Assembly (NCBI GenBank): GCA_043814605.1
Contig: JBDRJV010000035.1
Coordinates: forward strand, 10,275 to 74,274
DNA length: 64,000 bases
Reading direction: 5' to 3'
From: Candidatus Omnitrophota bacterium
Lineage (GTDB): Bacteria > Omnitrophota > Gorgyraeia > B26-G9
The position numbers and the translations under genes were made by a program. The notes under the pieces were generated by a model. The model did not search any database, was not told where the DNA came from, and was given only the letters and a program-made list of their open reading frames with translations. Below are positions 4,160-35,600 of the stretch, piece after piece. Position 1 is the stretch's first letter; every line of letters begins with the position of its first letter.

Positions 4160-4274
4160 CTACAATTTGTTTGTTTTCTGCCAAACTACTTGGTAGATCC
4201 GCTATGTTTTTTGGCGGAGACATTTATTTGGTATTTGCTTATTTGGCATTTGTCATTCCGATAATATTATCGGG

Positions 4275-6014: not shown

Positions 6015-6017
6015 TAT

Positions 6018-6323: not shown

Positions 6324-6555
6324 AATTATTTGCTTAATTTCTCATCTAATCCAGTCTTAAAAATAAGAAAAAGTCAGTATTTTTAGTATAACGAGTATAC
6401 TAAGAAAAATCAATAAATTTCTCTTATAAGTAATTTAAGGTAAGATTAGTATTTTTATGGGGTTAGTGTAACCAATGTCTGTTATTAATAACTTACTTAT
6501 ATTAAAAACAGTAAAAATTTTAACTAAAGGAGGTTAATGGAGTTACTAAGATTTA

Positions 6556-9500
6556 TTATATTGCCTGTTCAATAATTATATCTGGATAAGATAACTCAGG
6601 GGCAAACCACTTTTGAGGAAGATTCATCTCTGGCAGAAAACGAGGTATTGAGGGAATTCCTTTCCCTGAACGAATACTTTCTGAGAAAATTTCATCTACT
6701 GTTCTATCATCGCTTATAAATGCATTGTCCGCTTCTCTTTGAATCTGATTATTAATTCTATTAACTTCACTTTCCAGAGCTTCTTTTAAATTGTAAAATT
6801 TTTTATCCTTAAAAAACTCATTAAAAATTTTGTTTAAATTTTTTGTATTAATATGCCTTATAAACTCCTTCACATAAGCAACTTCGGCAATTCCTATGCT
6901 GGGAATAATCTCGCCTTTTTGAGCTGCTTTACAATAAGCTGCATAAAGTAAAAATTCAGGGCTTGATGCCAATGTTCCGCAAAGTGTTAACGGATAATTA
7001 TATTTTTTAGAATTTGACAGCAAAATATTTAAAGCATCTATCAAATCTGGGCTCAGCTGATTAAGAATTTCACTCATGCCTACAGTTCCTCTTTCTACCT
7101 TTTCTCCGCGATGTACAGCTAAAAATGTTATTAAATCATTGGTTCCAATACTGCCAAAATCAGAAATTTCCATTAAACTAGAACTAGACAAAACAGAACT
7201 TGTAGTTTCAAACATCAGGCCTATTTGAAAACCTTTTATATCTTCTTCAGATATTTTAATATAACTAGGGTCTTCTTCCTCTCTCTTATTTTCATCTTTT
7301 TCTAATAATTCTGTTTCAGCTTTCTTGACAAGGTCCCTTTCTCTGACCAATTCATCAACAGTTGAAACCATGGGAAAAAATACTTTAATTACTCCATGTT
7401 CTGCATAAACCCGCATAGCTGCTTTAATCAGATTTTTTGTTATTCTTTGTCCCACAGCATCATCAAGTATAAACTCAATCCCCTGGAGTTTATCATCCAC
7501 GCGTTCCTGATCATTAACTTCATCTTCTGTAAGCACTAAATCATAAAAATCCTTTACATCCGCATCCGCAGCCCGGGAAAGCTGGCGGTCCGGCATTCTC
7601 ACGCTTAATGATTTAACTTTAGATTGAATAATAATATCTTTAAATATTTCTATCCATTTATCTTCTGGGATATCGCTTTCAAAACGCTGGAATTCATTTT
7701 CTGTCCGATATAAAGCAATTCCATCCACGCCAATTTTATCAAACTGCGTCGCTCCTTCAAACCCGTCTAAATTAACCATCAAAGACATTTCTGTTCCGTC
7801 TTTTGTCTTGACCGGGTCAAGTATTTTATTTTTACAATATTTTTCTCTAGCCACTGCGTCTTTCTGGATTGCTATTGCTTTTTTCTTATCCATATCATTA
7901 GGGTTAATTATTAAACTATGGTCTTTTGTATTTAAAATAGCTACTTCCCCGCCCTCAATTGCTTCCAGCGTCGAAACTCTGACTCCATTAATTGTTGTTG
8001 ACGCTTCTGCAATAATGGGAAAACCCTCCCCCTTAGCAACCAATGAATAATGTTTTAATCCTTTCCGGGTAACTATTCCTACACAATTCGGATAAAGTTT
8101 TCTTATTCTCCAATATTCAGGGATACTGCCAATATCCTGTGGTAATAAGAGAATAAATGCGGATTCTTTTGGGGCATTATTAATTTTTATAGATACTTTA
8201 TCACTTTCTGAGTAATCTTTTTTACTTTTTTTCAATTTGTACAATCGATACAATTCATTTGCAGCAGTTGCGTTTTCTATAGCTGAATTAATAACTACAC
8301 TATTAGGATTAATACTGTGTACAGCAAGCGGCTGAGTCCCAGAAAAAATTGCTCGTTCTACAGAGTAATTCTTATTACGCATAAGATATAATGTTTTCCA
8401 AGTTAGATTTTGCAAACTTCCTTTAAAACTTTTACATGTAGCAATTATATTACTATTATATTCGTTAAACTCCTTGCTTTTTTCTCCATATTTCTTTTTA
8501 ATTTTATTAAGCTCTAAAGTATATTTTTTAAGTTTTTCAGAATATTCTTTATCAATTTCCAAAAATGTATCAATTAAAAATTTTTCTTCTTCATTTTTTG
8601 GATTTAAATTTTCATCCGCTTCCATTATTTTATATAACACTTTAGAAATATCAATTGCAGCAGAAAAAATTTCATTATTTAAATCAGCATTATCGCTTTC
8701 ATTTTCTGTAAAATTCATTATTTCTGAAAGAAATTTTACTATTGGGGATTTTTTTGTTTCATGCGCATAATCAACGCTTAGACTAAATGCTTTATTAAAT
8801 AATGATTTTACTTCATTTCTATATTGATGATTTTTGTCTTCCAAATTTTTAATGATATTTGATATTGCTTTTCCTAAATCATCAATATCCTGTATTATAT
8901 TTTGGGAAGTATAACCCTTAAGAGGATAAGACAAATATTTAGGATCTTCTTCAGCTTTAACCATTATTCCAGAATAACAGTTGGGAGGAGTTTTGTTAGA
9001 TACTCCGTTTACAGAAAAACCTTTTTTCATTGTTTCTCGCATTTCTTCAGTTATCAACTGGATTTTTCTTCTTTTCTCGTCGCGGTTTTTTGCAATAGTT
9101 CCTAAATTTATTTGTTTTCCTTTCATCTGATCCATACTTATCAAATTTTTTTCCTTACCAAATAAATTGCTTTTTATTGCATCAATATTTAATCCTTTTT
9201 TATCTGCTTTTTCTTCAGTTGAAATTTCATGCATTTCTATAAACATTATTCCCAAATCATCCTCAGCTAAATTTTCATTTGTTTTAAATGTTGCGCTTGT
9301 GTCCTTATAAGTATTACCTTTTAATGTTTTTTCTATAAATTCAGAAATTTTTCCCTTTACTCCCGCTTCATTTTTATAGACAACAAATGATTCTGTAAAT
9401 TCCTGTCCTTCAATACTCACATTTCTTAAAGTAAGTATAAATTTCTGTTCCTGATTTTTGTTATTCAAAATATTTTTAATCATCTCATTAATAGAAATAA

Positions 9501-9933
9501 TCTGATAATACAATGTCTCCAAAGAAGTTCTTTGTTTATATTCAAGAGGCATTTTCGATAGGATAGTATCGGCTAAAAGCAGATTCAAAAAAATAAATTC
9601 TTCTTTTTCTGCAGAATCCAGCCTTTTCTGCCCCAGGAAGTTTTTTTCTGAAATTAATTGGAGCAGTTCAGCTTCTTTGTCGGTTCTTGCTCTAAACGGA
9701 AGTTCAGATAAAGAATCAATGATATATACAGGTTCATACTTTTTTGTTTCTTTCTTGGTTTCGGCAGTCTTTGAAAAAACATTTTGTATTGCTTTATTGC
9801 TAAGCTCTATATCCGGAGCAAGATTATCATGGTCATAAGTAATAAAAGCCAGAGCATTGCTTAATAATAATAATTGTATCAGCAATAAACTTGTAAGATT
9901 TGTGATGAATTTTAATTTCTTATTTATTTTCAT
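6556..9933 (-). CDS. Large exported protein: Sec signal peptide, K/E/N-rich low-complexity N-terminal half, C-terminal PEP-utilising enzyme (Enzyme I-like) phosphohistidine and PEP-binding domains
   Basis: Predicted start MKINKKLKFITNLTSLLLIQLLLLSNALAF (ATG 9931-9933, AGGA 9 nt upstream). The track start at 9993 is a TTG inside a repeat. The C-terminal roughly 560 aa carry a GIVTRKGLKHYSLVAKGEGFPII His region, GVDGIALYRTENEF (G..G..LYRTEF), SIGTNDLITFLAVHRGEK (the FSIGTNDL motif) and LCGTLASSPE (CGE.AGDP-like). Confidence 0.55.
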   Translation of the reverse strand: MKINKKLKFITNLTSLLLIQLLLLSNALAFITYDHDNLAPDIELSNKAIQNVFSKTAETKKETKKYEPVYIIDSLSELPFRARTDKEAELLQLISEKNFLGQKRLDSAEKEEFIFLNLLLADTILSKMPLEYKQRTSLETLYYQIISINEMIKNILNNKNQEQKFILTLRNVSIEGQEFTESFVVYKNEAGVKGKISEFIEKTLKGNTYKDTSATFKTNENLAEDDLGIMFIEMHEISTEEKADKKGLNIDAIKSNLFGKEKNLISMDQMKGKQINLGTIAKNRDEKRRKIQLITEEMRETMKKGFSVNGVSNKTPPNCYSGIMVKAEEDPKYLSYPLKGYTSQNIIQDIDDLGKAISNIIKNLEDKNHQYRNEVKSLFNKAFSLSVDYAHETKKSPIVKFLSEIMNFTENESDNADLNNEIFSAAIDISKVLYKIMEADENLNPKNEEEKFLIDTFLEIDKEYSEKLKKYTLELNKIKKKYGEKSKEFNEYNSNIIATCKSFKGSLQNLTWKTLYLMRNKNYSVERAIFSGTQPLAVHSINPNSVVINSAIENATAANELYRLYKLKKSKKDYSESDKVSIKINNAPKESAFILLLPQDIGSIPEYWRIRKLYPNCVGIVTRKGLKHYSLVAKGEGFPIIAEASTTINGVRVSTLEAIEGGEVAILNTKDHSLIINPNDMDKKKAIAIQKDAVAREKYCKNKILDPVKTKDGTEMSLMVNLDGFEGATQFDKIGVDGIALYRTENEFQRFESDIPEDKWIEIFKDIIIQSKVKSLSVRMPDRQLSRAADADVKDFYDLVLTEDEVNDQERVDDKLQGIEFILDDAVGQRITKNLIKAAMRVYAEHGVIKVFFPMVSTVDELVRERDLVKKAETELLEKDENKREEEDPSYIKISEEDIKGFQIGLMFETTSSVLSSSSLMEISDFGSIGTNDLITFLAVHRGEKVERGTVGMSEILNQLSPDLIDALNILLSNSKKYNYPLTLCGTLASSPEFLLYAAYCKAAQKGEIIPSIGIAEVAYVKEFIRHINTKNLNKIFNEFFKDKKFYNLKEALESEVNRINNQIQREADNAFISDDRTVDEIFSESIRSGKGIPSIPRFLPEMNLPQKWFAPELSYPDIIIEQAI

Positions 9934-9951
9934 TTCAATTGTCCTGCTTTT

Positions 9952-10001
9952 TAAGTAGCGAGTAGTACCCTTACGGGCACAAGCGAGTAGCAAGTAGCGA
10001 G
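9952..10001. repeat. Heptad-repeat intergenic element, copy 1 of the 45-bp variant
   Basis: AGTAGCG/AGTAGTA/AGCGAGT/AGCAAGT 7-bp units flank the near-palindrome gtacccttacgggcac. It is nearly identical to 36533-36582. Confidence 0.7.
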
Positions 10002-10041
10002 AAAAATATTTTTACTTTATGCTAATCGCTAAGCGCTATCT

Positions 10042-11343
10042 TTAAATCGCCTGTTCGATTATCCCTTTATTAATAAATAAATTACTTTCTTGCGCTTCAA
10101 TGGGCAATGCTGGCTTTATTTGTTCGAATAAAACATTGAAATCCAACATGGAGTTTTGCGCTTTTATTGCAAAAATATCAAAATTATCCCAACCTTCAGA
10201 TTCATATGAATTAATTTTTTCAGTGATCAAGTTATATTTTTTAAATAAATCATAAATATAGTCGCTCCCCTTTAACACAACCATGTATAAAACTCCGTTG
10301 GGAGTAAGATACATATTAAATTCAGAAAACAATTTATTAAAAAACTCATAACTATTTTCTATTTCGGATACCCCTCGGCGTTGGTTAAATTTCGGAAAAA
10401 TTGTTTCCCCGGGTGGGAAAAATGCCATTGCACTAAATTTTCGCCCTTTTAAATTAGCAAATAAATTAGAATTTATTACTTCTACTTTATCCTCAACTCC
10501 TAAAGCATTAACTACCATCCGCGTATTTGTTATTGCTGTTTTTTTGTAATCAATGGCAACTGCGTTAGCTCCTGTTTTTTTTGCAATAATTCCGCTAAGA
10601 AAACCTGCGCCTGAGCCAATTTCTAAAATCTTATCCTGAGAATTAACTCTTTCTAAAACACTTTTTATCAGTATTTCTGTAGCTTTATTAATTGGATAAT
10701 ATACAGCAGAAACATATGGCAATTTATCAATACCTATATTCCAGTTTTTTAAAGAAACAGGCTTTATTAAAAAGATAGAAACTCCTTCATCAAAAATAAG
10801 TGAATTATCTAGTTGTTTTTTTAATTTTGGTAATTGTTCCGGGTCTAAATCCATCGCGGTAATTTCAACAAGATTGATTAAAAAAGTTCTTCGGTAATGC
10901 ATTAATTTTATCTTTAGTGCTAAAGGGTAGTTATCAGAATTTCTGATTAAAAATGCTTCAAATTCATTATTTAGACCTGGGATAATTTCTTTAACTAATT
11001 CTGTATTACCAATATTGACCGGAATATTGTTAGCGATTGGATTTTTCTGCTTAATAATTTCAAGTTTCAAATCGTCTAAAAAAACTTCAACCGTAGAATT
11101 AAGCTTAGGAAATTTAATTTTATCAAATAATGGTTTATTCCTATTCTGCCTGGTTAGAGAAATTTGTATATTTTTAAAAATTTCAGAAAAGTTATTAGCA
11201 TTTAATTGCATTGCCGGTGAAAGCAAATCGCTATTTTTATACGCAAAATTTTTCCCTGCTCCAAATGCCCATGTATGGGTTATTAAAATAAGCATTTGAA
11301 TTAAAATAAGTAATAGAATATTAAAAAACAATTTCTTATTCAT
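10042..11343 (-). CDS. Exported protein with a C-terminal class-I SAM-dependent methyltransferase fold (HemK/PrmC-like, degenerate NPPY)
   Basis: Signal peptide MNKKLFFNILLLILIQMLILITHTWAF. Motif I ILEIGSGAGFLSGIIAKK. A motif-IV-like AFFPPGE in place of NPPY. Confidence 0.5.
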   Translation of the reverse strand: MNKKLFFNILLLILIQMLILITHTWAFGAGKNFAYKNSDLLSPAMQLNANNFSEIFKNIQISLTRQNRNKPLFDKIKFPKLNSTVEVFLDDLKLEIIKQKNPIANNIPVNIGNTELVKEIIPGLNNEFEAFLIRNSDNYPLALKIKLMHYRRTFLINLVEITAMDLDPEQLPKLKKQLDNSLIFDEGVSIFLIKPVSLKNWNIGIDKLPYVSAVYYPINKATEILIKSVLERVNSQDKILEIGSGAGFLSGIIAKKTGANAVAIDYKKTAITNTRMVVNALGVEDKVEVINSNLFANLKGRKFSAMAFFPPGETIFPKFNQRRGVSEIENSYEFFNKLFSEFNMYLTPNGVLYMVVLKGSDYIYDLFKKYNLITEKINSYESEGWDNFDIFAIKAQNSMLDFNVLFEQIKPALPIEAQESNLFINKGIIEQAI

Positions 11344-11577
11344 AATTATTAATTTATCGTTAATTTATACTTTTAAAATGGTTTTATTATATTATATAAT
11401 TATATCATATTTAAATTAACTTTGCAAATCATTGAATTTATAACTTTCTTTATATCAATTAGATATGATAACTTATAAGTAAAATTTATCTTTAAACATT
11501 AAATTTAACTAATTAACTAAATAAAATACTCAACTAGTTTAAAATACCATAGTTAAGTGTTTATGAACATTAGGTTT

Positions 11578-14500
11578 TTAAATTGAACGCTCTAAATTCA
11601 TTATGAGTGCTTGCGAAGGAGCAGCGCTTTTTTCTAATATTTTATCTTCTCCTGTGTTTTTGACTGCTTCAGCCTGTTGTTGGGATAATTTTTCACTGAG
11701 TAATTCTAAAGCTTTTTTCATTGTTTGTTTTATTACAGGCAATTTAGTTTTGTCTTTGTAAAATATAACTAATCCCGGAGTCCCGCCAATAGCCATCATT
11801 CTTGCACTGTTACCGAATTCATAAACATTTAAGGCAATATTTAAAGTTAAACCTTTAGAGATTTCCAAAGAACCAAGCTCCCCTTCACCTTCCGGAAAAG
11901 AATGCGTAGGAATAAGAAATGCCAGAATTGACCTTTCAACCTGTGCCTGCATTCCTTCAATCGCAACATGAGAGAAACCCGGAAATACCATGCTAAAATT
12001 ACTAATCCCGAATTTCCCTAAATTTTCATTAATACTTTTTTTAACCTCTCCGATGTTTTCATCCTGAGCATCTGAAATCATATATCCTAAGCCAAAATAT
12101 TCAACAGTATCCAACCTGCCTTGTTGCTGTAACAAGTTAAAATAATAGCTTGCAATTACCTCCGGAGCATCATCGAAAGATTTATCCTTATAATTATTTT
12201 CTTCTTCCTGAGATATATTTTGTTCGCAAGCCACAGACATAACTATTCCGTTGTCTATATCCTTATGCACAACAACTTCATTATCTAAAGGCGGCAACGA
12301 ATAATCACTGCTTAATCTGCCCATATTTTTAAAGGCCTCGAAAGAATCCAAAATCACATCAACCATTTCTGTTTTTTTACCGCCAGATTCTGCATAATCA
12401 CTATAAAATATTGTCTTATTAATCGCTGCCAAAATTATTCCTGCTAAATCTTCAAGATTAACCCCCAAATCATCAGCAACCGGAATCAGCACATTCTCAA
12501 TATAAGCATTAAAAGCTCCTGGCAAACTGATATCATTTACATTCATTTTTGCCTGTTTAATTTTATCTGTAAGCTGTTTACGCCACTCGGATCTTCTTAT
12601 CGCTTTAGCCGCTTGAGCATTTTCTACAACCTCTTTCATCGGGATTATTCTATCTTTAAAACTTAATGCCTCACCAGGCTGTTTAAGCTGGCGCAGCATC
12701 AGAATTCCCTGAGATTCCGCTGTTGTTTCTCGGGTTGTTTTTACCGCAAGATTTGAGGTTGGGTCTTTATCTTCAAAATGGGAAAGCGTGATTACTTCTG
12801 TCTGCATCAGAACGGTAGCCCGGGCTTGAACCGCTAAATTATAGGCTAATTTTCTGTCTACTTCTGCCTGAGAATCACCTTTATTGACCTTTTCTATCCG
12901 CAACTCAATTACCTGCACAGGGATTTGATATAAACTTCTTAACATATTACTTTGAATTCGCATCGCCGCAGCCTCAGGAGAATTAGAGTCAATAAAAAAT
13001 ATAAACTGATAAAGATCAGGCCGGGCTTGTGCCAATTGCATATAATCATTATTGTTATCTCCAAAAGCAGAGAAAGAATGAATAAAATTATTTCTTTGTA
13101 ACCCCGGCGCCAGGCCGGCAATACCTTCATTTGTATTCTGCGCATGTTCCATAATAAAATTTGATAAAGTTTCCGGATAAACCATCCAAAATTTATTACG
13201 ATCTTTTGTATAATTTCGGCGTGCAGAAACAGCTAATTTACTTGCCGCGTTATTCATTGCCTGGTTAAGATTATTATCTTTTATCCGTTTCGGCATTAAT
13301 TCAATATTCGTTTGATAAATCCCCTGAGCATAAACCTTGAGCATTTTTTCCGCCCAATCAAATGTTTTATGTTTATCTTTAAACTGTTTATATCCGATAA
13401 TTGCCAGCCAGGAATATAAAGGCCCATAAACCATATCTGTTAATTCTAACATGTGCCGGCCGCCAATATCACTTCTGGTATTATCAATAAAGTAAACTGT
13501 CCCTTGCTCTGGATCAATGCTCATGGTCAAATTTTTTACTCTTCCTGCATTAGCCCAGGAAATCACATTTAAAATCTGCAGGAAAGCATTCGGATTAATC
13601 AGAATTTCCTGTAAATCAGCGGGTTCCGTTGTATTCCCGCTGCGGCTCATAACCCACATGATTACATTTTTAATTGTCGGGTCTCTAAAATTTTCTAAAA
13701 CCTGAAGGATTTGTGCCGGATTATCAACAATTTGTAAATTAAAGTTTATGCCTAAAGCTTTAACTAATTGATCCAGGATATCTCTTAAACGACGCGCATA
13801 CTGTTCATTTGCGCCAATGCCATTATTCAACACATTATCAATTTCTTCTATGTTCAGGTTATTTTCCATAAAATTTCTTAAGCCATCAATTGATTCTCTT
13901 AAATCCGAAAGCCCTTTTTCTCCATAAATTTCCAGATTAGATTCACTTGTAAACCACTCTGGTTTTTCTTTTCCATAACCAGGAAGCTGTAAAAACCGGC
14001 CGTAAAAATCATCAATCCCGTCAAAATGCGGAAAACTTGTTGTCTGCGCATCAATAAACTTTTGGATTAAAAGATTAGACAAATAATTTGCTGGGCCTGG
14101 ATTTAAAGCCGGGCTTTGCGAAGCAGGATAAACAGTAACTTCTTTATCCGTTACATTAATTTTAAGATAATTGTCACTTAAATCACTTATATTTAATGTT
14201 CCTGCATGTTTTGCTGCGTTAAGTTCATATCTTAGTATTTTAGATTTTAACTTTGGATTTTTCTTTAATATTTCCAAAACCTGCTCTTTAGTCTTACCGG
14301 ATTTTTTTGCTAATTCAATCACCGCCGGAACAAATGCATCTGCATCTAATGCATTAATAATTGTGCCAATAAGCCTTTCATAATTATATATACCGGCAAG
14401 ATCCATAGAAGCTTTAATCTCTTGCATTAAAAATTTTGGGTTTATTGCGGGTATCGCGTACTTTTTTAGAATATCTTCTTTCTTAATGCTAAACATTTGA

Positions 14501-14676
14501 TAGAAATTGATATTTTGCATATTAATAACTGGAGCAAGATTATTTCTTTCTTGAGGATTTGCACTTAATGACTTAATATCCCCGTCAGCAAAAGACATAT
14601 TTGATAATAAAAAACCATGAATAATTAGAAGAGTAAGAACTTTAACCCAAAATTTTCCTGTAAGAAACTTAACCAT
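11578..14676 (-). CDS. Large exported protein (1032 aa) with a central SIS/phosphoglucose-isomerase-like motif
   Basis: Signal peptide MVKFLTGKFWVKVLTLLIIHGFLLSNMSFA. VIMWVMSRSGNTTEP resembles the PGI SIS motif (V.SKSGTT.ET), and GGRHM..SWLAIIG is nearby. Confidence 0.4.
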   Translation of the reverse strand: MVKFLTGKFWVKVLTLLIIHGFLLSNMSFADGDIKSLSANPQERNNLAPVINMQNINFYQMFSIKKEDILKKYAIPAINPKFLMQEIKASMDLAGIYNYERLIGTIINALDADAFVPAVIELAKKSGKTKEQVLEILKKNPKLKSKILRYELNAAKHAGTLNISDLSDNYLKINVTDKEVTVYPASQSPALNPGPANYLSNLLIQKFIDAQTTSFPHFDGIDDFYGRFLQLPGYGKEKPEWFTSESNLEIYGEKGLSDLRESIDGLRNFMENNLNIEEIDNVLNNGIGANEQYARRLRDILDQLVKALGINFNLQIVDNPAQILQVLENFRDPTIKNVIMWVMSRSGNTTEPADLQEILINPNAFLQILNVISWANAGRVKNLTMSIDPEQGTVYFIDNTRSDIGGRHMLELTDMVYGPLYSWLAIIGYKQFKDKHKTFDWAEKMLKVYAQGIYQTNIELMPKRIKDNNLNQAMNNAASKLAVSARRNYTKDRNKFWMVYPETLSNFIMEHAQNTNEGIAGLAPGLQRNNFIHSFSAFGDNNNDYMQLAQARPDLYQFIFFIDSNSPEAAAMRIQSNMLRSLYQIPVQVIELRIEKVNKGDSQAEVDRKLAYNLAVQARATVLMQTEVITLSHFEDKDPTSNLAVKTTRETTAESQGILMLRQLKQPGEALSFKDRIIPMKEVVENAQAAKAIRRSEWRKQLTDKIKQAKMNVNDISLPGAFNAYIENVLIPVADDLGVNLEDLAGIILAAINKTIFYSDYAESGGKKTEMVDVILDSFEAFKNMGRLSSDYSLPPLDNEVVVHKDIDNGIVMSVACEQNISQEEENNYKDKSFDDAPEVIASYYFNLLQQQGRLDTVEYFGLGYMISDAQDENIGEVKKSINENLGKFGISNFSMVFPGFSHVAIEGMQAQVERSILAFLIPTHSFPEGEGELGSLEISKGLTLNIALNVYEFGNSARMMAIGGTPGLVIFYKDKTKLPVIKQTMKKALELLSEKLSQQQAEAVKNTGEDKILEKSAAPSQALIMNLERSI

Positions 14677-14944
14677 GTTTTACTCCTTTATGGGCAAACA
14701 TTAATTAAAATATTTTTACTTGAGAATTAGGAATATTCCTTTTTAATTTACCTTTAAAAAGAAATAAATAAGTTCAAAAGTATACCATATAATATTGTTA
14801 TATACAAGGGCCGGAATAATTTTTCTTTTACTATAACTTGCTGTACATAAAGGTGTTAAGATAAAGATTGAAAATTGTTCAGCATATAATTTTATTAAAC
14901 AATTATTTTAATTTAATGGGGAGGAATTTTTATCCTAAAAACAA

Positions 14945-16348
14945 TTAAAACCGAAAAAGACGTTTAAGGGCAACATAAGAATACCAAAACATATTCAATT
15001 TATAAGGAAATCGGATAATTATCCGCACAATCCTTTTAATATCCAGAAAAAATTTACGATAGGCAAGCTTTTGTAATTGATGTAATCTTTTTGTGGCAAC
15101 TGTACTTAAATTAAAATCATGCAACCAATAATCAACTTCATAATATTGTTCTGCGGGTAATTTTGAGTATTTTTTTGCTAAATCCCATAATCCTGTTCGT
15201 TCAAAGGGAACAACAATAAAAAAATTTGCTAAATGAAGTTGAGATTTAACTGCAAAATCTATAGTCATTTTTACTTCCTCTTCAGTTTCAGTAGGAAATC
15301 CGAGCATAAAAAAAGCTTGGATAAGAATCTTATATTTATTAAGCAAGTTGATACTTTCAACTATTTTTTTTAAATCAAGATTTTTTTTAATTAATTTTTG
15401 AATACGTGCTGATGCTGTTTCAACTGCAACTGTAACTAAGTTTACTCCGGCAGCTTTTAATTTTTTAACATCCTCTTCATTAAGAATATCTCCTCTTAAA
15501 GCGTTAGGGAAAGAAAATGAAATATTTAACTTTTGTTCAACTATAGAATCAAGAATTTCATGCATTCTTTTTCTCTCAAAATTAAACGTATCATCATAAA
15601 TTAAAAATTGGTGAATATTAAAATTTTTCTGCATATATTTTATTTCATCAATTACATTATCCGGGCTTCTCCCTCTAAATTTCTTACCAAAAACATGATG
15701 ACAATACGCACATTGATAAGGACATCCGCGGCTTGTAAAAATCGGCAAATACCTTAATGGTCCTAAGGTAGACATATTTCTTGTTTTAAAATATTTTTTT
15801 AAATCTAACAGATCAAAAGCAGGATAAGGCAAGGAATCTAAGTTTTCCATAAAAGCAGGCGAACCTGTAAAAATAACCTTACCTTCTCGGGCAAAAGCAA
15901 TCCCTTTTATCTGAGACAAATTTCCGTTATTGAGCAATACTTTAACTATATTTTCTATTGTCCCTTCTGTTTCTCCTACAGCAACTAAGTCTATTGATGG
16001 CTCAAGAGCCAGACTATCATAATGAATTGTTGCATGAGCTCCTCCTACGATAAGTTTAACATCAGGTAATGTTTGTTTTATTTTATTAGCAACCTCAAGC
16101 ATCAATCCAGCATTATAAGTCATTGCCGATAAGCCGACAATTGCCGGGTTTTCTTTTTTAATCACCTCGGTAATTTCCTGCGGATTCATTTTTTTTATCT
16201 TCATATCAAGGATATGAACATTTTTAAAACCAGATTTGCGCATTACAGCTGCTAAATAGCAAATTCCCATCGGCGGGGTCATTATCGGATCATTAGATGT
16301 AAATTTTCCGATATTTATAAAAATTATTTTTCCCTGTTTTGACATCAT
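14945..16348 (-). CDS. B12-binding-domain radical SAM protein (paralogue 1)
   Basis: N-terminal cobalamin-binding-like domain (IVGLSAMTYNAGLMLEVANKIK..VGGAHATIH) followed by TSRGCPYQCAYCHH. Confidence 0.75.
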   Translation of the reverse strand: MMSKQGKIIFINIGKFTSNDPIMTPPMGICYLAAVMRKSGFKNVHILDMKIKKMNPQEITEVIKKENPAIVGLSAMTYNAGLMLEVANKIKQTLPDVKLIVGGAHATIHYDSLALEPSIDLVAVGETEGTIENIVKVLLNNGNLSQIKGIAFAREGKVIFTGSPAFMENLDSLPYPAFDLLDLKKYFKTRNMSTLGPLRYLPIFTSRGCPYQCAYCHHVFGKKFRGRSPDNVIDEIKYMQKNFNIHQFLIYDDTFNFERKRMHEILDSIVEQKLNISFSFPNALRGDILNEEDVKKLKAAGVNLVTVAVETASARIQKLIKKNLDLKKIVESINLLNKYKILIQAFFMLGFPTETEEEVKMTIDFAVKSQLHLANFFIVVPFERTGLWDLAKKYSKLPAEQYYEVDYWLHDFNLSTVATKRLHQLQKLAYRKFFLDIKRIVRIIIRFPYKLNMFWYSYVALKRLFRF

Positions 16349-16369
16349 TGAGTCTGTACGCCTTTCTGA

Positions 16370-17860
16370 TTAAAACATAATATTTTTAACCAAACTAAAA
16401 ATTTTAAATTCCCAAGGAAATTTAAAATTTAAATTCTTAAGACGATATCTGGCAATCGGTCTATATACTTTGCATAAAAGTCTAACAAAAACAGATTCGA
16501 TTATATCATTGCTTTTTTCATCAATAAATAAACTTAAGAAAAAAATAAAATTTAACTCTTTTTTTTCTTTGGCATTAAACCAGGGCGTAATTATCGTTGA
16601 ACCGTCTATTTTCGCCCATTCTTTTAAAGAACCAGGCATTTTAAAACCCTGTCCTTGTGCCTGTTCTAATAGTTTTGTCCCTGGCTGAGGAGTTAAACAA
16701 AAAGCCGATAATATCCTTGCTTGGGGATTATCTTCAAGCAGTTTAAACATTAAATCAATACTTTTCTTTAAATCTATACGTGTTTCACCCGGCATGCCAA
16801 TCGTAAAATAATAATAGCAAATCATATTAGTTTTTTTAAGACGATTATTTAATTGAATTATATCTAAAAGAGAGGATTTTTTCTGCATTCCTTCAAGCAT
16901 TTTAACAGAGCCTGATTCTGCTCCCATACGTAAAATAGAACATCCTGCGTGTTCGATCAGCTCCAAATAAGCATCACTGACGCTAATTAATTTATCAATA
17001 TCCACTCCTTGTAAAAACCATTTTATAGCTATATTTCTTTTTATTAATCCCCGGGCTATATCTTCAACTCTTTTTAGATCTGTAAAAAATGCATCATCAA
17101 TAAAATCCAAACAGCTAACATTATATTCTTTTACTAACCGTTCAATCCGCTTTAAAACTTTTTCTGCGGATTGAGCGCGCCATTTTCTTTTATTAAACAC
17201 AGGATTATAGCAAAAAATACAATCCTGCACACAGCCGCGGGAAGTTTCTATATTTAATTTTAGTTTGTCTTTTTCAAACCGGGATCCAGCACTAACATTA
17301 TATTCAGACACATTAATCAGATGATACGGCAAATCCGGTAATTCATTTAAATCAATAAAATCACGTATTCCGGTAAAAATAAACTCTTTGTTCTTTTTAT
17401 AATAAATACCCCTGACCTTTGAGATATCTTCTTTTTTTTCAATTGCCTGAGCAAATTCAAACAGAGTTTCTTCTGCTTCGCCCACACAAACATAATCAAT
17501 GCTGGGTTCTTTTAATACAACTTCCGGGATTAAACTCGGATGCACTCCTCCCCAGATTACAGGGATATTAATTTTTAATTTGAAATTTTTTGAACTTTTT
17601 AGATATTCAGAGATTTCCAGCGCATGCAAAATTTGTGTGCCCCCCATTGTATGCACGCCCGCTAAAATTGTATCTTCATTTACTATTTTTTTTAATTCGA
17701 GTTTCCAATCACAATATAAATTCTGGTCAAAAATTTTTACATCATATTTCTCTGTTAAATAAACCGCAGCACTTAATAACCCCAGCGGCAAGGGCCGTTT
17801 TTTACGCAGATTAACAAATAAACCGCCGGTTTTAGGATAAATGAGAATTATTCTTTTCAT
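16370..17860 (-). CDS. B12-binding-domain radical SAM protein (paralogue 2)
   Basis: Same architecture, with TSRGCVQDCIFCYNP. Confidence 0.75.
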   Translation of the reverse strand: MKRIILIYPKTGGLFVNLRKKRPLPLGLLSAAVYLTEKYDVKIFDQNLYCDWKLELKKIVNEDTILAGVHTMGGTQILHALEISEYLKSSKNFKLKINIPVIWGGVHPSLIPEVVLKEPSIDYVCVGEAEETLFEFAQAIEKKEDISKVRGIYYKKNKEFIFTGIRDFIDLNELPDLPYHLINVSEYNVSAGSRFEKDKLKLNIETSRGCVQDCIFCYNPVFNKRKWRAQSAEKVLKRIERLVKEYNVSCLDFIDDAFFTDLKRVEDIARGLIKRNIAIKWFLQGVDIDKLISVSDAYLELIEHAGCSILRMGAESGSVKMLEGMQKKSSLLDIIQLNNRLKKTNMICYYYFTIGMPGETRIDLKKSIDLMFKLLEDNPQARILSAFCLTPQPGTKLLEQAQGQGFKMPGSLKEWAKIDGSTIITPWFNAKEKKELNFIFFLSLFIDEKSNDIIESVFVRLLCKVYRPIARYRLKNLNFKFPWEFKIFSLVKNIMF

Positions 17861-17952
17861 GTTCAGGTCTCAGGTTACAAGTTACAGGTTTTAAGCCACA
17901 GGCATGTACTAATTCTTCTACTTGCTACTTGCTACTTACTGCCTGATGCTTG
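17861..17952. repeat. Heptad-repeat intergenic element with inverted arms
   Basis: Left arm CAGGTTA CAAGTTA CAGGTTT TAAGCCA CAGGCAT. Right arm CTTGCTA CTTGCTA CTTACTG CCTGATG CTTGTTA CTTATTG CTTGTTA. The arms are imperfect reverse complements of each other. It fills the whole gap between two rSAM genes. Confidence 0.7.
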
Positions 17953-19473
17953 TTACTTATTGCTTGTTACTTTTAAAAGTTTATCAATAAATTTATCCGA
18001 TAAATATTTTTTTACTAAATACTCTTTTTTTGCTTTTACGCTTATTGATTTATTTTTCATGATTAGATATTCTTTAATTTTAGATAAATTTACCTGTAGC
18101 ATTTGATAAAAAAGCAGGATTATACTTTTTTGAAAATACCTGCGGAAATGATATTGAGGATGCAATAAAAATAAATATTTTATCGGGTCAAAGGTAGAAA
18201 ATAAATTAAATAAAAAATGCTCAGTGGAAGATTCATCCGAACAAGTCAACCTTGCATCGTGATAAAATAAATCATCAATTTCAAAATCTTGGGTAATATT
18301 TTTATATCCGTAAGTTGTGGGAAAAGCTTTATAATTTCCCGCGCGGGCATCTGTACAGTATTTACGCGCAACAGAGTATTTAAGTTTTTCTGTTTGCTTT
18401 AATCCCGGAATACCGGAAATAAATAAACCCGTAACAAATATGTTATATTTTTTAAGTACTTTTATGGCTTTGAAATAACCCTGATCACGGGTAGAATTAT
18501 CTAACCCCTTATTGATTCTTGTTAATACCCGGGGATTTGTATGCTCAAACCCAATAATTATTCTCTTCAAACCGCTTCTTGCCGCAAAATCAATAAAACC
18601 CGGATTATTAATAATTGTATCAATTCTTAAAAAAGCGCCCCAGCTAAAATCAAATCTCTCCGACAGCATCATCTCAATTAATTGGCTGTCCCTGTTAATA
18701 TCATTAGCAAATCCATCATCAACAATCGCCAGTTGAGAAACCCCCAGGTTTTTTAAAATTTTCAATTCTTCTTTAACCCTGGGAAGAGATTTATACCTCT
18801 GCTGTTTTTCCCAAAAAGAGTTAACCAAACAAAAATTACAATCATTAATACAACCGCGGGAAGTTTCTATGCTTGCCGAAAACCCTTTCTGGGAAAGCAT
18901 TAAATCATAGAGTTTAAAATCAATAATCCCCCAATTAGGCAGAGGAGAACAATCTAAATCATCCAATAACGGATAATCCCCGGTATCGATAATTTGGCCG
19001 GCTGCCTGATAAATAAGTCCCGGGATATCTGCAAGATTTTGCCAATCATTTTTATGGGTTGAAGCTTTAATCAGCCGGAAAAATGTGCCTTCAGCCTCCC
19101 GCTTTACAATTATATCCACGCCTCTTTCAAGCCACTGCCTTGCATAAACATTAGCATGAATCCCGCCTGCGATAATTGGTTTCTGGGGGCAGATTTTTTT
19201 GATTATTTTTATCGTGATTTCATAATTAAGACTAACCAAAGAATCCATTATACTTAAAACAATAACATCATATTTTTGAACAAGTTTTTTGTATTCGGGG
19301 ATTGTTAAACTATCATAAAAACCGTCAAAATAAAAAACTTCATGCTCCAGCGGGACTAAAGCAGCCAGTAAAGGAAAAGTTACTCCGGGATTAGAAAAAA
19401 GATATCTGGCAAAATCATTACGAACCGGCCAGGCAGTATGAATATCTAAGGGGTTTAAGAACAAGATTTTCAC
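17953..19473 (-). CDS. B12-binding-domain radical SAM protein (paralogue 3)
   Basis: Same architecture, with TSRGCINDCNFCLV. Confidence 0.75.
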   Translation of the reverse strand: MKILFLNPLDIHTAWPVRNDFARYLFSNPGVTFPLLAALVPLEHEVFYFDGFYDSLTIPEYKKLVQKYDVIVLSIMDSLVSLNYEITIKIIKKICPQKPIIAGGIHANVYARQWLERGVDIIVKREAEGTFFRLIKASTHKNDWQNLADIPGLIYQAAGQIIDTGDYPLLDDLDCSPLPNWGIIDFKLYDLMLSQKGFSASIETSRGCINDCNFCLVNSFWEKQQRYKSLPRVKEELKILKNLGVSQLAIVDDGFANDINRDSQLIEMMLSERFDFSWGAFLRIDTIINNPGFIDFAARSGLKRIIIGFEHTNPRVLTRINKGLDNSTRDQGYFKAIKVLKKYNIFVTGLFISGIPGLKQTEKLKYSVARKYCTDARAGNYKAFPTTYGYKNITQDFEIDDLFYHDARLTCSDESSTEHFLFNLFSTFDPIKYLFLLHPQYHFRRYFQKSIILLFYQMLQVNLSKIKEYLIMKNKSISVKAKKEYLVKKYLSDKFIDKLLKVTSNK

Positions 19474-19477
19474 AAAA

Positions 19478-21022
19478 CTAAAACCTCTTTTTTAATATTT
19501 TTGATTTTTTAGTTAAAGATTGTGATAATATCCATCCCGAAAGAATTGCTGTGGTTACTCCGGTTCCGGGGAGGGTCCAGTGCCCGGATAAATAAAGATT
19601 TTTAACCGGAGTTTTTTGCTTTAAACGGTAAATCAAAGCTTGCTCCGGTGTATTCGCCCAGCCGTACATTGACCCCTGAAAACTTAAAGAAAAATTATTT
19701 AAATCCTGAGGAGTAAATATTTTTTTCACCACAATATGTTTAGATAAGTTTTTCACTTTTTTTTCTACGATATTAATCATTTCATCCGCGATTTGTTCTT
19801 TTGCCATGCGCCAGTCCCGTTCTGTTTGCCAGGGGAAAAATGCCGTTAAGATTAATGTGCTGTGCCCGGGAGGCGCTAAGTTAGTTTCAATATGCGTTGG
19901 TGAATAGGCACTTAAACAAGAGAGGATTCCTTTTGTCAGCTTTTCAAAATTTAAGTTAAAATCCAGCGATTCATAAAAAAAATATTCATGTTTATCTAAA
20001 CCATTCTGAGCAATATCAAAATCAAGGCCCAAGAATAATTTAAACGGGCCAACCGCCGGAGATAGTTTAAATAGCTTATTCATATATTTTTTAGGCAAAA
20101 GATCAGGGTTGATTAATTTGGTAAAAGTCTCTATAGCATCGGCATTAGAAATAACTGTGTTGGCGAATATTTTTTCCCCGTTTTCTAAAATTACCCCTTT
20201 TGCTTGATTTTCTTCAATTATTATTGCTTGAACTGCAGATTCAAGTAATACTTTCCCCTGTTTTTGTTCTATCGCCTGGACAAAAACATCGGTAACTTTT
20301 TGTGAACTGCCTTTTGGATAATAGGTATGTTCTCCATAAAGCCCGCTCATACAAGCCGCAAGCATCAACCCGGATATTTTATCTGGCGGTAATCCTAAAT
20401 AAGGCCAGCAAGCCGTAAATAACGCCGCTAAATGTTTATCTTTAGTGATAATTTGAAAAAACTTATCCGCAGTTTTCCGGGAATTAAACAGCCAGAATAA
20501 TCCGGTAAGAGGATATAATATTTTTTTTAATACACCAATCTTATCATAATCACTTCTTTTAACCGCTTGTTTACCCTGAAAAATCCGCGCGGTAATCATT
20601 ACATCCTGACGCCAGGCAATCATTAGTTTAAAAAACCTACGAATATCTTTTTTATTGCCCGGAGAGTACTTGAGCATAATTTTTTCCAGTGCGGCATAAT
20701 TACCCGGTAAAGGAATTTCACAATCCGGTAAAACTAAAACAACAAAGGGATCAATTTTAAAAAATTCAAGTTTATCTTTTATTTGATAATCTTCCAGCAC
20801 CCGGGCACAATTTCCCCTTTCATCAATTCCGGTTAATTGATGCACGGCTAAATCAAAAGTATATCCGCCAAGGTTAAAAGCTGAACAATTTCCTCCCGCA
20901 ACCCGGTTACGTTCGCAAACAACTACTCTTTGCCCGGCTTGCGCTAACCCTAAAGCTGCAGATAACCCTCCCATACCGCTGCCAATAATTACTGCATCTG
21001 CAATCTGTTTATTTTCTGTCAT
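19478..21022 (-). CDS. FAD-dependent oxidoreductase, phytoene desaturase (CrtI)/amine-oxidase family
   Basis: Dinucleotide-binding ADAVIIGSGMGGLSAALGLAQAGQRVVVCERNRVAGG and a CrtI-like length. The start is assigned to the ATG at 21020-21022, which shares its A with the recJ TAA (TAATG). Confidence 0.7.
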   Translation of the reverse strand: MTENKQIADAVIIGSGMGGLSAALGLAQAGQRVVVCERNRVAGGNCSAFNLGGYTFDLAVHQLTGIDERGNCARVLEDYQIKDKLEFFKIDPFVVLVLPDCEIPLPGNYAALEKIMLKYSPGNKKDIRRFFKLMIAWRQDVMITARIFQGKQAVKRSDYDKIGVLKKILYPLTGLFWLFNSRKTADKFFQIITKDKHLAALFTACWPYLGLPPDKISGLMLAACMSGLYGEHTYYPKGSSQKVTDVFVQAIEQKQGKVLLESAVQAIIIEENQAKGVILENGEKIFANTVISNADAIETFTKLINPDLLPKKYMNKLFKLSPAVGPFKLFLGLDFDIAQNGLDKHEYFFYESLDFNLNFEKLTKGILSCLSAYSPTHIETNLAPPGHSTLILTAFFPWQTERDWRMAKEQIADEMINIVEKKVKNLSKHIVVKKIFTPQDLNNFSLSFQGSMYGWANTPEQALIYRLKQKTPVKNLYLSGHWTLPGTGVTTAILSGWILSQSLTKKSKILKKRF

Positions 21023-22707
21023 TAAAAAATCCGGATATCTTTTAATTGTAATTGAATTGTGGATATCCCCTGCCACTCATTCATCGCCGGTGAATAAACA
21101 ATAGAAAAACCTTTATTAATATGTGAAATGTCCAGATCCGTAAACTTACTGCCAAAAGCTTCACAAGTAACTTTTCCGTCTGTAACCCACATCTTAAACC
21201 CGTTACCGCGTAAAGCCTTTGGCCTGCCTTTTAAAGCTAAATCACGTGAAATAAATACAGGCCGCGGGTTGCCCATACCAAACGGAGCGCACTGTTCAAT
21301 TTCGTTAATCAATTTTTCCGAAAGCACGCTTAAATCAATCTCCATATCAATATCAACCGTGGGAATTAAATCATCTTCGGTTAAGGATTTTATCGCCATT
21401 TCATTAAAAAACTCTTTGAAACTTTGCAGGTTTTCTCTCAAAATACTAATCCCCGCGGCTTTTTCATGGCCGCCAAATTCTTGTAATAAATGACCGCATT
21501 TAGTGAGTGTTTCAAATAAATGAAAATTTCTGATTGAACGCCCGGACCCCTTGCCTGTACTATCTTTAGTTGAAATTAAAATTGTCGGCCGGTAAAACCG
21601 TTCGGCAATACGCGAAGCAACAATGCCGATAACTCCAGGATGCCAATCATCATTGTGTAATACAAGAGAGCGGTGCTGTTTAAAATTTATTTGGGTTTCA
21701 ATCATGGCTAAAGCGCCGCGCAGAGTTTTAGCTTCTTCTTTTTGCCGTTCTTTATTTTCTCTATCCAGGTTTTGTGCTAATTTAAGTGCCTGCACATAAT
21801 CACGGGTTAAGAGAAGATCTAGGGCCATTTGGGCTGATCCCATGCGTCCGGTAGCATTAATCCGCGGGCCTAATATAAATCCGACATGGTAGCTTGAGAG
21901 CTTACGTTTAGATATTCCGGTAATTTCGATTAAAGCTTGCAATCCTATCTTTTTTGTCTGTGATAATCTTCCCAGCCCTTCTTTTACTAAAATTCGATTT
22001 TCACCCACTAAAGTTGCAACATCACTGATTGTTCCCAAGGCCACTAAATCCAAATGTTGGTATACATCGCTGTTTTTCCCGGCAATAGTTTGGGCTAATT
22101 TATAAGCAATCCCTACGCCTGCTAATTCTTTAAACGGATACTGACAATCTTTTTGCCAAGGATTAATCACTGCATAGGCTGCAGGTATTTTATGCTCACG
22201 CGGTTGATGGTGATCGGTAATAATAATATCAATACCCTGTGAATTTAGAAAACCTGTTTCTTTAAAACTGGATATTCCACAATCTACGGTAATAATTAAT
22301 CCTGCTCCTTGCGCTTTTAAATATGCACAGGCTTCTTGATTCAAGCCATAGCCTTCTTCTACCCGGTGCGGAATATAACAGTAAACATCCGCCCCCAAAT
22401 CTTTAAGCACAAAAAACAATAATGCACAACTGGTTAATCCATCAACATCATAATCCCCGTAAATAAATATTTTTTCTTTTTGTTTAATTGCTTTTCTAAT
22501 CCGCAATACAGATTTTTCCATATCCTTAAGTAGTAATGGATCAAAACAATTATCAATACAAGCATTTAAATAAAAATCCGCTTCGGCTAATGTATTGACT
22601 TGCCGATTGAGAAGAATTTGGGCAATAATCGGAGAAATACCCAGTTCTTGGGAAAAATTATTTTGTTTTTTTAAATCTATCTTGCTAATGTTCCAGTTTT
22701 TTTGCAT
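21022..22707 (-). CDS. recJ: Single-stranded-DNA-specific exonuclease RecJ
   Basis: DHH motifs IYGDYDVDGLTS, ITVDCGISS and IITDHHQP, and the DHHA1 motif GGHEKAAGISI. Confidence 0.9.
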   Translation of the reverse strand: MQKNWNISKIDLKKQNNFSQELGISPIIAQILLNRQVNTLAEADFYLNACIDNCFDPLLLKDMEKSVLRIRKAIKQKEKIFIYGDYDVDGLTSCALLFFVLKDLGADVYCYIPHRVEEGYGLNQEACAYLKAQGAGLIITVDCGISSFKETGFLNSQGIDIIITDHHQPREHKIPAAYAVINPWQKDCQYPFKELAGVGIAYKLAQTIAGKNSDVYQHLDLVALGTISDVATLVGENRILVKEGLGRLSQTKKIGLQALIEITGISKRKLSSYHVGFILGPRINATGRMGSAQMALDLLLTRDYVQALKLAQNLDRENKERQKEEAKTLRGALAMIETQINFKQHRSLVLHNDDWHPGVIGIVASRIAERFYRPTILISTKDSTGKGSGRSIRNFHLFETLTKCGHLLQEFGGHEKAAGISILRENLQSFKEFFNEMAIKSLTEDDLIPTVDIDMEIDLSVLSEKLINEIEQCAPFGMGNPRPVFISRDLALKGRPKALRGNGFKMWVTDGKVTCEAFGSKFTDLDISHINKGFSIVYSPAMNEWQGISTIQLQLKDIRIF

Positions 22708-35542: not shown

Positions 35543-35546
35543 GCTC

Positions 35547-35600
35547 TAAGTCTCAGGTTACAGGTAACAGGCTACAGGCTGCAAGTTGCAAGCTACAAGC
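35547..35600. repeat. Heptad-repeat intergenic element (single arm)
   Basis: CTCAGG TTACAGG TAACAGG CTACAGG CTGCAAG TTGCAAG CTACAAG, seven consecutive 7-bp units NNNCARG. Confidence 0.65.

Follow-up and report, generated by a model that had tools for sequence, protein, structure and literature searches.

A conserved flavoprotein and cobalamin-binding radical SAM module from an Omnitrophota genome and its possible part in tailoring a lipid-linked envelope substrate

Most cobalamin (B12) radical S-adenosylmethionine (SAM) enzymes have no known function, and those that have been characterised carry out chemically demanding steps on the unactivated carbons of antibiotics, chlorophylls, hopanoids and archaeal tetraethers. 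In this study, we examined a 64,000-nucleotide stretch of DNA from a Candidatus Omnitrophota bacterium (contig JBDRJV010000035.1; the window in what follows, with positions counted from its first letter), in which three genes for B12-binding radical SAM proteins (rSAM-A, rSAM-B and rSAM-C) are packed together with a gene for a CrtI-family FAD flavoprotein. This arrangement is not a product of chance, since the same gene families are syntenic in other phyla. As our favoured, tentative reading, the four proteins may well form a conserved membrane-associated module that tailors a lipid-linked substrate of the cell envelope.

Among described systems, the nearest parallels come from membrane lipids. 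HpnP and HpnR are hopanoid C-2 and C-3 methylases, GrsA and GrsB are ring synthases of glycerol dialkyl glycerol tetraethers (GDGTs), Gmm/Hgm, Cgm and Pgm are tetraether methylases, and Ted is a tetraether desaturase. All have the same core as the window proteins, a B12-binding domain and a CxxxCxxC motif in about 470-510 amino acids (aa), and both sets are soluble, with likely peripheral membrane anchoring, and include several paralogues, which in the described systems act on one lipid. In the archaeal system, which includes Grs, Gmm/Hgm, Cgm, Pgm and Ted, a CrtI-family partner, the archaeol hydratase Has, acts on the same lipid class (10.1101/2025.10.20.683597; 10.1101/2023.10.20.563219), much as a flavoprotein stands beside the radical SAM genes here. 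In contrast to these systems, the module has no hopanoid, tetraether or isoprenoid context, and its neighbours in related loci are glycosyltransferases of family 2 (GT2) and of the GT-C fold; with Grs, Gmm and Cgm, the comparison is one of architecture and context.

A different parallel is offered by HpnI/HpnJ and ArnC/ArnT, whose lipid-loading GT2, class-B radical SAM enzyme and PMT_2-type GT-C transferase resemble the recurrent neighbours of the A- and B-type radical SAM genes. The pair of HpnI (GT2) and HpnJ (B12-dependent radical SAM) acts on a lipid-linked sugar. HpnJ is among the best matches of rSAM-A but far below its cut-off, and no hpn or arn genes occur here; further, the hpn system has one radical SAM protein whereas loci of the module have up to about nine paralogues, and the window has no GT2. 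BchE is the best curated family for rSAM-A and rSAM-C, with a near-full-length alignment for rSAM-A, and some sources automatically annotate homologues as BchE, yet the scores are well short of the family cut-off and the module has no bacteriochlorophyll gene context of the kind expected for BchE, BchQ or BchR. The type II fatty acid synthesis (FASII) clusters of Kuenenia stuttgartiensis and Desulfotalea psychrophila also combine a B12-binding radical SAM gene with an amine-oxidase/CrtI-like flavoprotein and were proposed to serve long aliphatic chains under anoxia (PMC2649909). Unlike in those clusters, whose anammox role is itself a hypothesis, no FabF, acyl carrier protein (ACP) or FASII gene adjoins the module. 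With CrtI, CrtD, CrtISO and RetSat, finally, the flavoprotein has in common the FAD fold and a full-length alignment, but it scores below the family cut-off, falls in a clade of its own and has radical SAM or ole partners in place of crtB, crtE or cyclase genes.

In our literature searches we found no published description of the module or of its link to GT2 and GT-C genes, and nothing relevant on B12-binding radical SAM clusters with polyprenyl phosphate, GT-C or phytoene desaturase in Elusimicrobia. The enzymes themselves belong to known superfamilies, and chemistry of this kind has precedents.

The radical SAM proteins and the flavoprotein

The module and its immediate surroundings are laid out as follows, in the order of transcription.

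recJ, 21022-22707, minus strand: matches the NCBIfam recJ equivalog with 568 bits against a cut-off of 397; a neighbour outside the module
Flavoprotein, 19478-21022, minus strand: CrtI-family FAD flavoprotein of 514 aa; its gene heads the module as transcribed
rSAM-C, 17953-19473, minus strand: B12-binding radical SAM protein of orthogroup C, 506 aa, GTG start
C-to-B spacer, 17861-17952, minus strand: 92 nt with two short heptanucleotide arrays; not specific to the module
rSAM-B, 16370-17860, minus strand: B12-binding radical SAM protein of orthogroup B, 496 aa
rSAM-A, 14945-16348, minus strand: B12-binding radical SAM protein of orthogroup A, 467 aa; followed by a 268-nt AT-rich gap

The first-pass annotation of this DNA, made from its letters and open reading frames (ORFs), had described three adjacent, co-oriented genes with both domains, and this description holds: the reading frames lie where they were placed, all on the minus strand, and the Pfam domains are found. 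It had also put the flavoprotein immediately downstream of the three; in the direction of transcription the flavoprotein gene lies upstream of them. rSAM-A matches the Pfam B12-binding and Radical_SAM domains with 81 and 84 bits (motif TSRGCPYQCAYC) and rSAM-B with 37.6 and 62.6 bits (motif TSRGCVQDCIFC), both above the gathering score of 32.1 bits for B12-binding (PF02310). rSAM-C matches Radical_SAM (PF04055) with 49.8 bits, while its B12-binding match of 30.8 bits falls narrowly below the gathering score. A profile-profile comparison of the orthogroups aligned C (residues 1-396) with B (residues 1-404) at a probability of 100% and E 4e-49; because this alignment runs across the N-terminal domain and the radical SAM core, rSAM-C has a B12-type N-terminal domain as well. 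All three proteins have the CxxxCxxC motif for a [4Fe-4S] cluster (CPYQCAYC, CVQDCIFC and CINDCNFC). Judged by these domains, rSAM-A, rSAM-B and rSAM-C have the class-B radical SAM architecture, and their use of cobalamin is predicted; in AprD4, a B12-binding domain occurs without cobalamin.

In an NCBIfam scan, none of the three reached the curated cut-off of any family. The most informative scores, given for rSAM-A, rSAM-B and rSAM-C in this order, were these.

BchE (TIGR02026): 200, 110 and 123 bits; cut-off 481
HpnJ (TIGR03471): 168, 104 and 81 bits; cut-off 578
HpnR (TIGR04367): 102, 48 and 59 bits; cut-off 650
Lipid biosynthesis B12-binding/radical SAM protein (TIGR04072, "ladderane-type"): 116, 120 and 50 bits; cut-off 360
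PhpK: 113, 109 and 94 bits; cut-off 600

The top match was BchE for rSAM-A and rSAM-C and TIGR04072 for rSAM-B, with HpnJ third for rSAM-A; no Grs, Gmm or Cgm family was among the NCBIfam matches. The best relatives of solved structure (PDB), all at about 50 bits or less, were MgmA/QCMT (9CCB), AprD4, CysS, TokK and OxsB. The three proteins thus appear to be class-B radical SAM enzymes outside the characterised NCBIfam families. No transmembrane (TM) helices are predicted in any of the four module proteins. rSAM-A ends in a strongly amphipathic, cationic helix (residues 430-447, YRKFFLDIKRIVRIIIRF, hydrophobic moment muH 0.83) followed by an aromatic-rich tail, and the tail of rSAM-B resembles it in being cationic, amphipathic and rich in aromatic residues.

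The three radical SAM proteins are ancient, non-redundant paralogues, as judged from their pairwise identities of 24-28%. We clustered by BLAST score 91 B12-binding radical SAM proteins from loci around relatives of the flavoprotein (genome contigs and assemblies; the loci are metagenome-assembled contigs, with ORFs partly called in this analysis). rSAM-A, rSAM-B and rSAM-C fell into separate orthogroups of 30, 15 and 20 members, each with members from Omnitrophota, Elusimicrobiota and one metagenome-assembled genome (MAG) of Bdellovibrio, and A and B also with members from one Myxococcota MAG; a fourth group was confined to Elusimicrobia. In a neighbour-joining tree (capped distances, 100 bootstraps), the B orthogroup was monophyletic in 96 of 100 replicates. 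In 98-99 of 100, the clade of each window paralogue was at least 90% pure, held at least 80% of its cross-phylum partners and excluded the other two paralogues. Identities across phyla are correspondingly modest: rSAM-C is 65% identical to its orthologue in the Omnitrophota locus L001 and 28-36% to those of Elusimicrobia and Bdellovibrio, and rSAM-A is 35-39% identical to the radical SAM protein encoded next to the flavoprotein in L002, L004 and L005. The low identity and the orthogroups spanning phyla rule out a recent duplication without conserved partners, which the first-pass annotation had named as the finding that would undo its proposal.

The flavoprotein matches Pfam Amino_oxidase with 82 bits over residues 17-498, together with NAD_binding_8, and its FAD-binding GxGxxG motif (GSGMGG, residues 14-19) is invariant in the alignment of its clade. 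Its nearest curated families are crtI_fam, carotenoid isomerase and CrtD, all with scores below cut-off; crtI_fam (TIGR02734) gives 176 bits (E 1e-51, residues 10-507) against a subfamily cut-off of 238. The best solved relatives are the gamma-carotene desaturase 4REP and the CrtI structure 4DGK. It is an FAD enzyme of the amine-oxidase fold whose kinship to CrtI is at the level of the superfamily. Its clade, with identities of at least 39%, is set off from other CrtI-like proteins by a drop from 412 to 298 bits among full-length matches, and no carotenoid genes (crtB, crtE, cyclases) are seen in the window or in related loci. Of 22 genome-contig loci with a flavoprotein of this clade, 18 have B12-binding radical SAM genes, from one to about nine per locus. 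In L002 and L004, the flavoprotein gene begins within an A-type gene that overlaps it; in L005, the A-type gene lies directly upstream.

Two of the four in-clade loci that have no radical SAM genes connect the clade to other chemistry. In L012, from a Deltaproteobacteria MAG, an in-clade flavoprotein (45% identity) is encoded between oleA/B/C-like and oleD-like genes, which match PRK09258 with 416, PRK09274 with 685, olefin beta-lactone synthetase with 609 and 2-alkyl-3-oxoalkanoate reductase with 381 bits. In L010, from a Myxococcaceae MAG, an OleC-like AMP-binding gene and a fatty-acid hydroxylase gene are found near the in-clade flavoprotein. The presence of clade members among ole genes in Myxococcota ties the flavoprotein clade to long aliphatic chains. 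The L012 cluster (5625-17292) resembles oleABCD for long-chain olefins with three different CrtI-like flavoproteins inside it; L010 shares this trio, made up of the in-clade flavoprotein and two more, which suggests that head-to-head olefins are tailored by flavoproteins in these organisms.

Two variations on the module were seen elsewhere. Elusimicrobia encode, directly upstream of the flavoprotein, a protein of about 150-185 aa with four to five TM helices predicted from hydropathy (L004 9447-10004, L002 14886-15392, L015 9425-9877, L018 9415-9969); four members gave no significant Pfam match, a single member compared with NCBIfam gave none there either, and the window lacks this protein. 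In L013, an 18.7-kb locus of an Omnitrophota MAG with all genes on one strand, the flavoprotein (47% identity) is part of a larger variant with B- and C-type genes and two other B12-binding radical SAM genes. This variant also has two plain radical SAM genes, of which one encodes an HMPTM zinc ribbon, as well as genes for a class I methyltransferase and for a thiamine pyrophosphate enzyme of three domains, and an ORF that matches both the sulfatase and Radical_SAM Pfam families.

Glycosylation genes in related loci

In the four closest Omnitrophota relatives, the orthologues of rSAM-C and rSAM-B (62-65% identity) are adjacent and are followed by two A-like radical SAM genes and a GT-C gene with PMT_2 and tetratricopeptide repeat (TPR) domains; the flavoprotein gene (73-81% identity) adjoins this PMT_2 gene in opposite orientation. 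Another radical SAM gene lies on the opposite side of the cluster, and a GT2 gene is found beyond the last radical SAM gene wherever the contig extends that far. Taken over the loci of the Omnitrophota type, L001, L007, L008 and L046 have both the PMT_2/TPR and the GT2 gene, while L006 has the PMT_2/TPR gene and its contig stops before the GT2 position. GT2 and PMT_2 are also present in the Bdellovibrio locus (L035).

Glycosyltransferases likewise surround the individual radical SAM types. The closest homologue of rSAM-A (53% identity) shares its locus with GT9, two PMT_2, GT2, GT87, three more B12-binding radical SAM genes and a SPASM radical SAM gene, and a Nitrospirae homologue is surrounded by GT2, GT4 and TMEM260-like genes and by five that are GT-C-like; the flavoprotein is absent from both of these loci. 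L040 and L042 carry GT9, GT2, GT4, GT87, PMT_2 and TMEM260-like genes. When an alignment of the B orthogroup was scanned against metagenome contigs, we obtained 24 non-redundant loci that carry a B-type gene and measure 8 kb or more. A small GT2 occurs in 15 of them, a GT-C gene in 12, a sugar-1-phosphate nucleotidyltransferase in seven, and three or more B12-binding radical SAM genes in 14.

Elusimicrobia have a fixed unit of five genes, which encodes a PRK07208-like amine-oxidase flavoprotein, a sugar-1-phosphate nucleotidyltransferase, a B-type radical SAM protein and a small GT2, and lastly a protein that combines some five N-terminal TM helices with a C-terminal beta-propeller in about 530-610 aa (L004 12959-19048, L005 11699-17805, L021 11720-17841; also L075, L076 and L087). 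The GT2 proteins associated with the module best match AglJ, dolichyl-phosphate hexose transferase, PpgS and ArnC, all with scores well under cut-off; these four families are polyprenyl-phosphate sugar synthases. GT4, GT87/PMT_2, DegT aminotransferase, GFO/IDH/MocA oxidoreductase and class I methyltransferase genes also recur as neighbours.

The first-pass annotation had proposed a pathway acting on an isoprenoid, polyprenyl lipid or similar hydrophobic substrate and had pointed to an isoprenoid or lipid biosynthetic context as the thing to look for. Such a context did not emerge. No FASII, ACP, Mss, Tes or hopanoid genes were found in the window (annotated at 1.9-52.7 kb, the scope of all statements on absent window genes below unless given otherwise) or in related loci, and fatty-acid-type genes are confined to the ole genes of the two Myxococcota loci; what recurs instead is GT2 and GT-C/PMT_2. 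A hydrophobic or polyprenyl-linked substrate nevertheless continues to be the best guess, and the earlier interpretation is upheld in part.

Possible substrates and chemistry

The most likely substrate, as far as sequence and gene context can tell, would be a sugar linked to polyprenyl phosphate, or else an envelope glycolipid or carrier lipid of a related kind. The module would act at the cytoplasmic face of the inner membrane on this membrane-embedded molecule; the amphipathic tails of rSAM-A and rSAM-B, the TM protein of Elusimicrobia, the GT2 and GT-C partners and the CrtI fold are the grounds on which we infer a substrate held in the membrane. Each class-B enzyme would use its [4Fe-4S] cluster to cleave SAM, and the resulting 5'-deoxyadenosyl radical would abstract hydrogen from an unactivated carbon, the three enzymes attacking different positions of the substrate. 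The enzyme would then complete a cobalamin-assisted step. C-methylation is the most probable such step because it is the commonest in class B, in which ring formation or contraction and desaturation are known alternatives. The CrtI-type flavoprotein would act on the hydrocarbon part, where it would make a C-C bond more or less saturated or alter its geometry; to our knowledge, all characterised CrtI-family enzymes act on long hydrophobic chains. The product would be passed, in related genomes, to a polyprenyl-phosphate-sugar synthase (GT2) that works in one system with a GT-C transferase.

Several observations count against this account. The flavoprotein occurs in only two of the 24 B-type loci, with one more cut at a contig end, so that the radical SAM proteins and the flavoprotein could serve separate pathways encoded side by side. 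No isoprenoid or polyprenyl synthesis genes were seen in the window or in any related locus, no GT2 gene of the associated type is present in the entire 64-kb window, and its sole PMT_2 gene is about 7 kb from the module, past unrelated genes. The family scores of the GT2 proteins and of the flavoprotein are all far under the curated cut-offs, the support is guilt by association drawn from metagenomic contigs, and sequence cannot separate methylation from other class-B chemistries.

Among other explanations, the one closest to our favoured reading is that bulk membrane lipids are the target and that the module adds methyl branches, rings or double bonds to their alkyl or isoprenoid chains, independently of glycosylation, as HpnP and HpnR do on hopanoids, Grs, Gmm, Cgm and Ted on tetraethers, and the putative methylases of branched GDGTs on theirs. 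A CrtI-family flavoprotein suits this idea, as do the in-clade homologue inside the ole cluster of L012, the OleC-like and fatty-acid hydroxylase genes of L010, the amphipathic tails of rSAM-A and rSAM-B, and the several non-redundant paralogues that a chain modified at many sites would call for. The best NCBIfam match of rSAM-B is named a lipid biosynthesis protein (TIGR04072), although at 120 of 360 bits, and HpnR is further off, at 48-102 of 650 bits. Homologues of Mss, Hbs and ElbD have been reported from Omnitrophota MAGs, and the FASII clusters of Kuenenia and Desulfotalea contain both radical SAM and phytoene-desaturase-like genes (PMC2649909), a pairing behind a proposed route to polyunsaturated or ladderane lipids. 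Against tail tailoring, the commonest neighbours are glycosyltransferases, and FASII, ACP, Mss, Tes, hopanoid and isoprenoid genes are missing from the window and from related loci; we regard it as unlikely. A little less probable again is that the radical SAM proteins modify the sugar itself, by C-methylation, ring contraction or dehydration of a nucleotide-activated or polyprenyl-phosphate-linked sugar, and so give an unusual GT-C donor, with the flavoprotein oxidising the sugar or acting in an unrelated step. GenK, GenD1, Fom3, AprD4 and HpnJ are parallels for this. The position of the B-type gene between a sugar-1-phosphate nucleotidyltransferase and a GT2 in Elusimicrobia would fit, as would the DegT aminotransferase, GFO/IDH/MocA oxidoreductase and GT4 genes of other loci; AprD4 is also among the best PDB matches and HpnJ is the third-best NCBIfam match of rSAM-A, but these similarities are generic for class B, at about 50 bits in the PDB and far below the NCBIfam cut-offs. 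Moreover, no characterised CrtI-family enzyme acts on a sugar, and no sugar-activation genes stand beside the module in the window.

Two further possibilities seem to us improbable. Maturation of a proteusin-like ribosomally synthesized and post-translationally modified peptide (RiPP), with the radical SAM proteins as C-methyltransferases of a precursor peptide, is brought to mind by ApyD and the RiPP C-methyltransferase family TIGR03975 among the NCBIfam matches, by the best PDB match 9CCB, a protein glutamine C-methylase, and by SPASM-type radical SAM genes alongside in Elusimicrobia and L040. The gaps of the module, however, contain no precursor ORF (in the 268 bp that follow rSAM-A, the sole ORF has 26 aa and runs the other way), genes for a leader-peptide protease or an ABC exporter were likewise not seen, CrtI-like flavoproteins do not belong to the enzymes of RiPP pathways, and the recurrent partners are glycosyltransferases. 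The least probable of the alternatives described here is the tailoring of a tetrapyrrole or other cofactor by enzymes like BchE, BchQ or BchR, to which the top matches of rSAM-A and rSAM-C and a pair of hemB and radical SAM/SPASM genes 11-13 kb away in the window could be brought into relation, as could the radical SAM-rich nitrogenase-paralogue loci of Elusimicrobia that are predicted to modify a tetrapyrrole (10.1101/765248). The BchE scores of 200, 110 and 123 bits are far below 481, unrelated genes separate hemB from the module, and no bch, chl, cfb or NifH/D-like gene occurs in the window or in the annotated fetched loci; nor are hpn, shc or other hopanoid genes among the annotated window ORFs. 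The first-pass annotation had reckoned with paralogues of the anaerobic cyclase inside a bch cluster, and this they are not. Mere juxtaposition of the radical SAM proteins and the flavoprotein takes what probability the other readings leave.

A bolder extension of the favoured reading, which we consider doubtful, is that uncultivated anaerobic diderms (Omnitrophota, Elusimicrobiota, some Bdellovibrionota and Myxococcota) use three to nine cobalamin radical SAM enzymes and a CrtI-type flavoprotein to make an undescribed lipid or lipid-linked sugar donor, multiply C-methylated, cyclised or desaturated, that feeds GT-C transferases. If true, this would add a new branch to envelope biochemistry, from which orphan methyl-branched lipid biomarkers of anoxic sediments might derive. 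Three ancient orthogroups and one CrtI-like clade shared by several uncultivated phyla make a compact four-gene target for heterologous expression. Were the substrate an envelope lipid or lipid-linked sugar, the module would represent new cell-surface chemistry in lineages with no cultured representatives and could explain unassigned methylated lipids of anoxic environments; were the link only positional, the finding would be an ordinary one, four uncharacterised enzymes in a compact genome.

Gene junctions, heptad arrays and the surrounding window

The stop codon of recJ and the ATG of the flavoprotein gene overlap as TAATG, with one base common to both genes, as the first-pass annotation had stated on the way to calling the coupling unusual. 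The overlap is there in the sequence; its significance is not upheld. At least six other junctions in the window overlap or abut, and recJ is beside the flavoprotein gene in none of the genome-contig loci examined (L001-L039). We therefore reject a functional link to recJ: the TAATG overlap is best read as a by-product of gene packing, and the coupling as lineage-specific and incidental. Within the module, rSAM-C begins with a GTG 4 nt past the flavoprotein stop, preceded by the ribosome-binding site AAAGAGG, and the spacers from rSAM-C to rSAM-B and from rSAM-B to rSAM-A measure 92 and 21 nt. An Rfam scan of 14-24 kb gave no riboswitch or other RNA above threshold, and promoter and terminator scans gave counts not above those in shuffled sequence.

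The 92-nt spacer is only partly made of heptads and not, as claimed, filled by them: it has about three copies of CAAGTAG, about four AACCTGT-like units and a non-repeated middle, and Tandem Repeats Finder reports period 7 with 2.9 copies at 17918-17937. Its folding energy of -20.2 kcal/mol (z = -0.5) is no better than that of shuffled sequence and lends no support to a structured RNA. The corresponding spacer in L001 is 7 bp long, and the heptad spacer is absent from relatives. Counting this one, at least six of the spacers that separate co-directional genes contain heptad arrays, so the heptad spacer is a genome-wide intergenic feature that stands outside the module. The arrays in the window are located at 4224-4257, 9980-10041, 17861-17952, 35543-35645, 36565-36582, 58232-58270 and 58496-58520. 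Their unit varies between sites (AGCTTGT AGCTTGC AACTTGC AGCCTGT AGCCTGT TACCTGT AACCTGA at 35.5 kb; AACCTGT AACTTGT AACCTGA GACCTGA at 17.9 kb), one array is in inverse orientation, and two run straight into the next ATG, ending "...GTAACCTGAGAC".

The remaining annotated ORFs of the window are housekeeping genes or unrelated to the module. They include a TrkH-like transporter, hemB with its radical SAM/SPASM neighbour, three secreted or anchored enzymes, a PEMT/ICMT-like membrane methyltransferase, CstA, RlmN, a TonB receptor, a Kdo transferase, a XerC/XerD-type tyrosine recombinase, topoisomerase I, chemotaxis genes and a hydrogenase. The hemB (ALAD) gene adjoins a 391-aa radical SAM/SPASM gene at 1860-4076, unlinked to the module, and the pair may belong to an alternative, siroheme-dependent haem pathway. 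Directly downstream of rSAM-A, three consecutive minus-strand genes encode a 1145-aa protein with PEP-utilizers_C (6556-9993), an MTS-type methyltransferase of 433 aa (10042-11343) and a protein of 1032 aa that matches no Pfam family (11578-14676); each starts with a hydrophobic segment like a signal anchor, behind which comes a common motif resembling NLAP.I.(M/L).N..F...F. Since the minus strand carries 46 of the 47 window ORFs that reach 150 aa and the GC skew is negative throughout 1-64000, the whole window appears to be one co-directional gene array.

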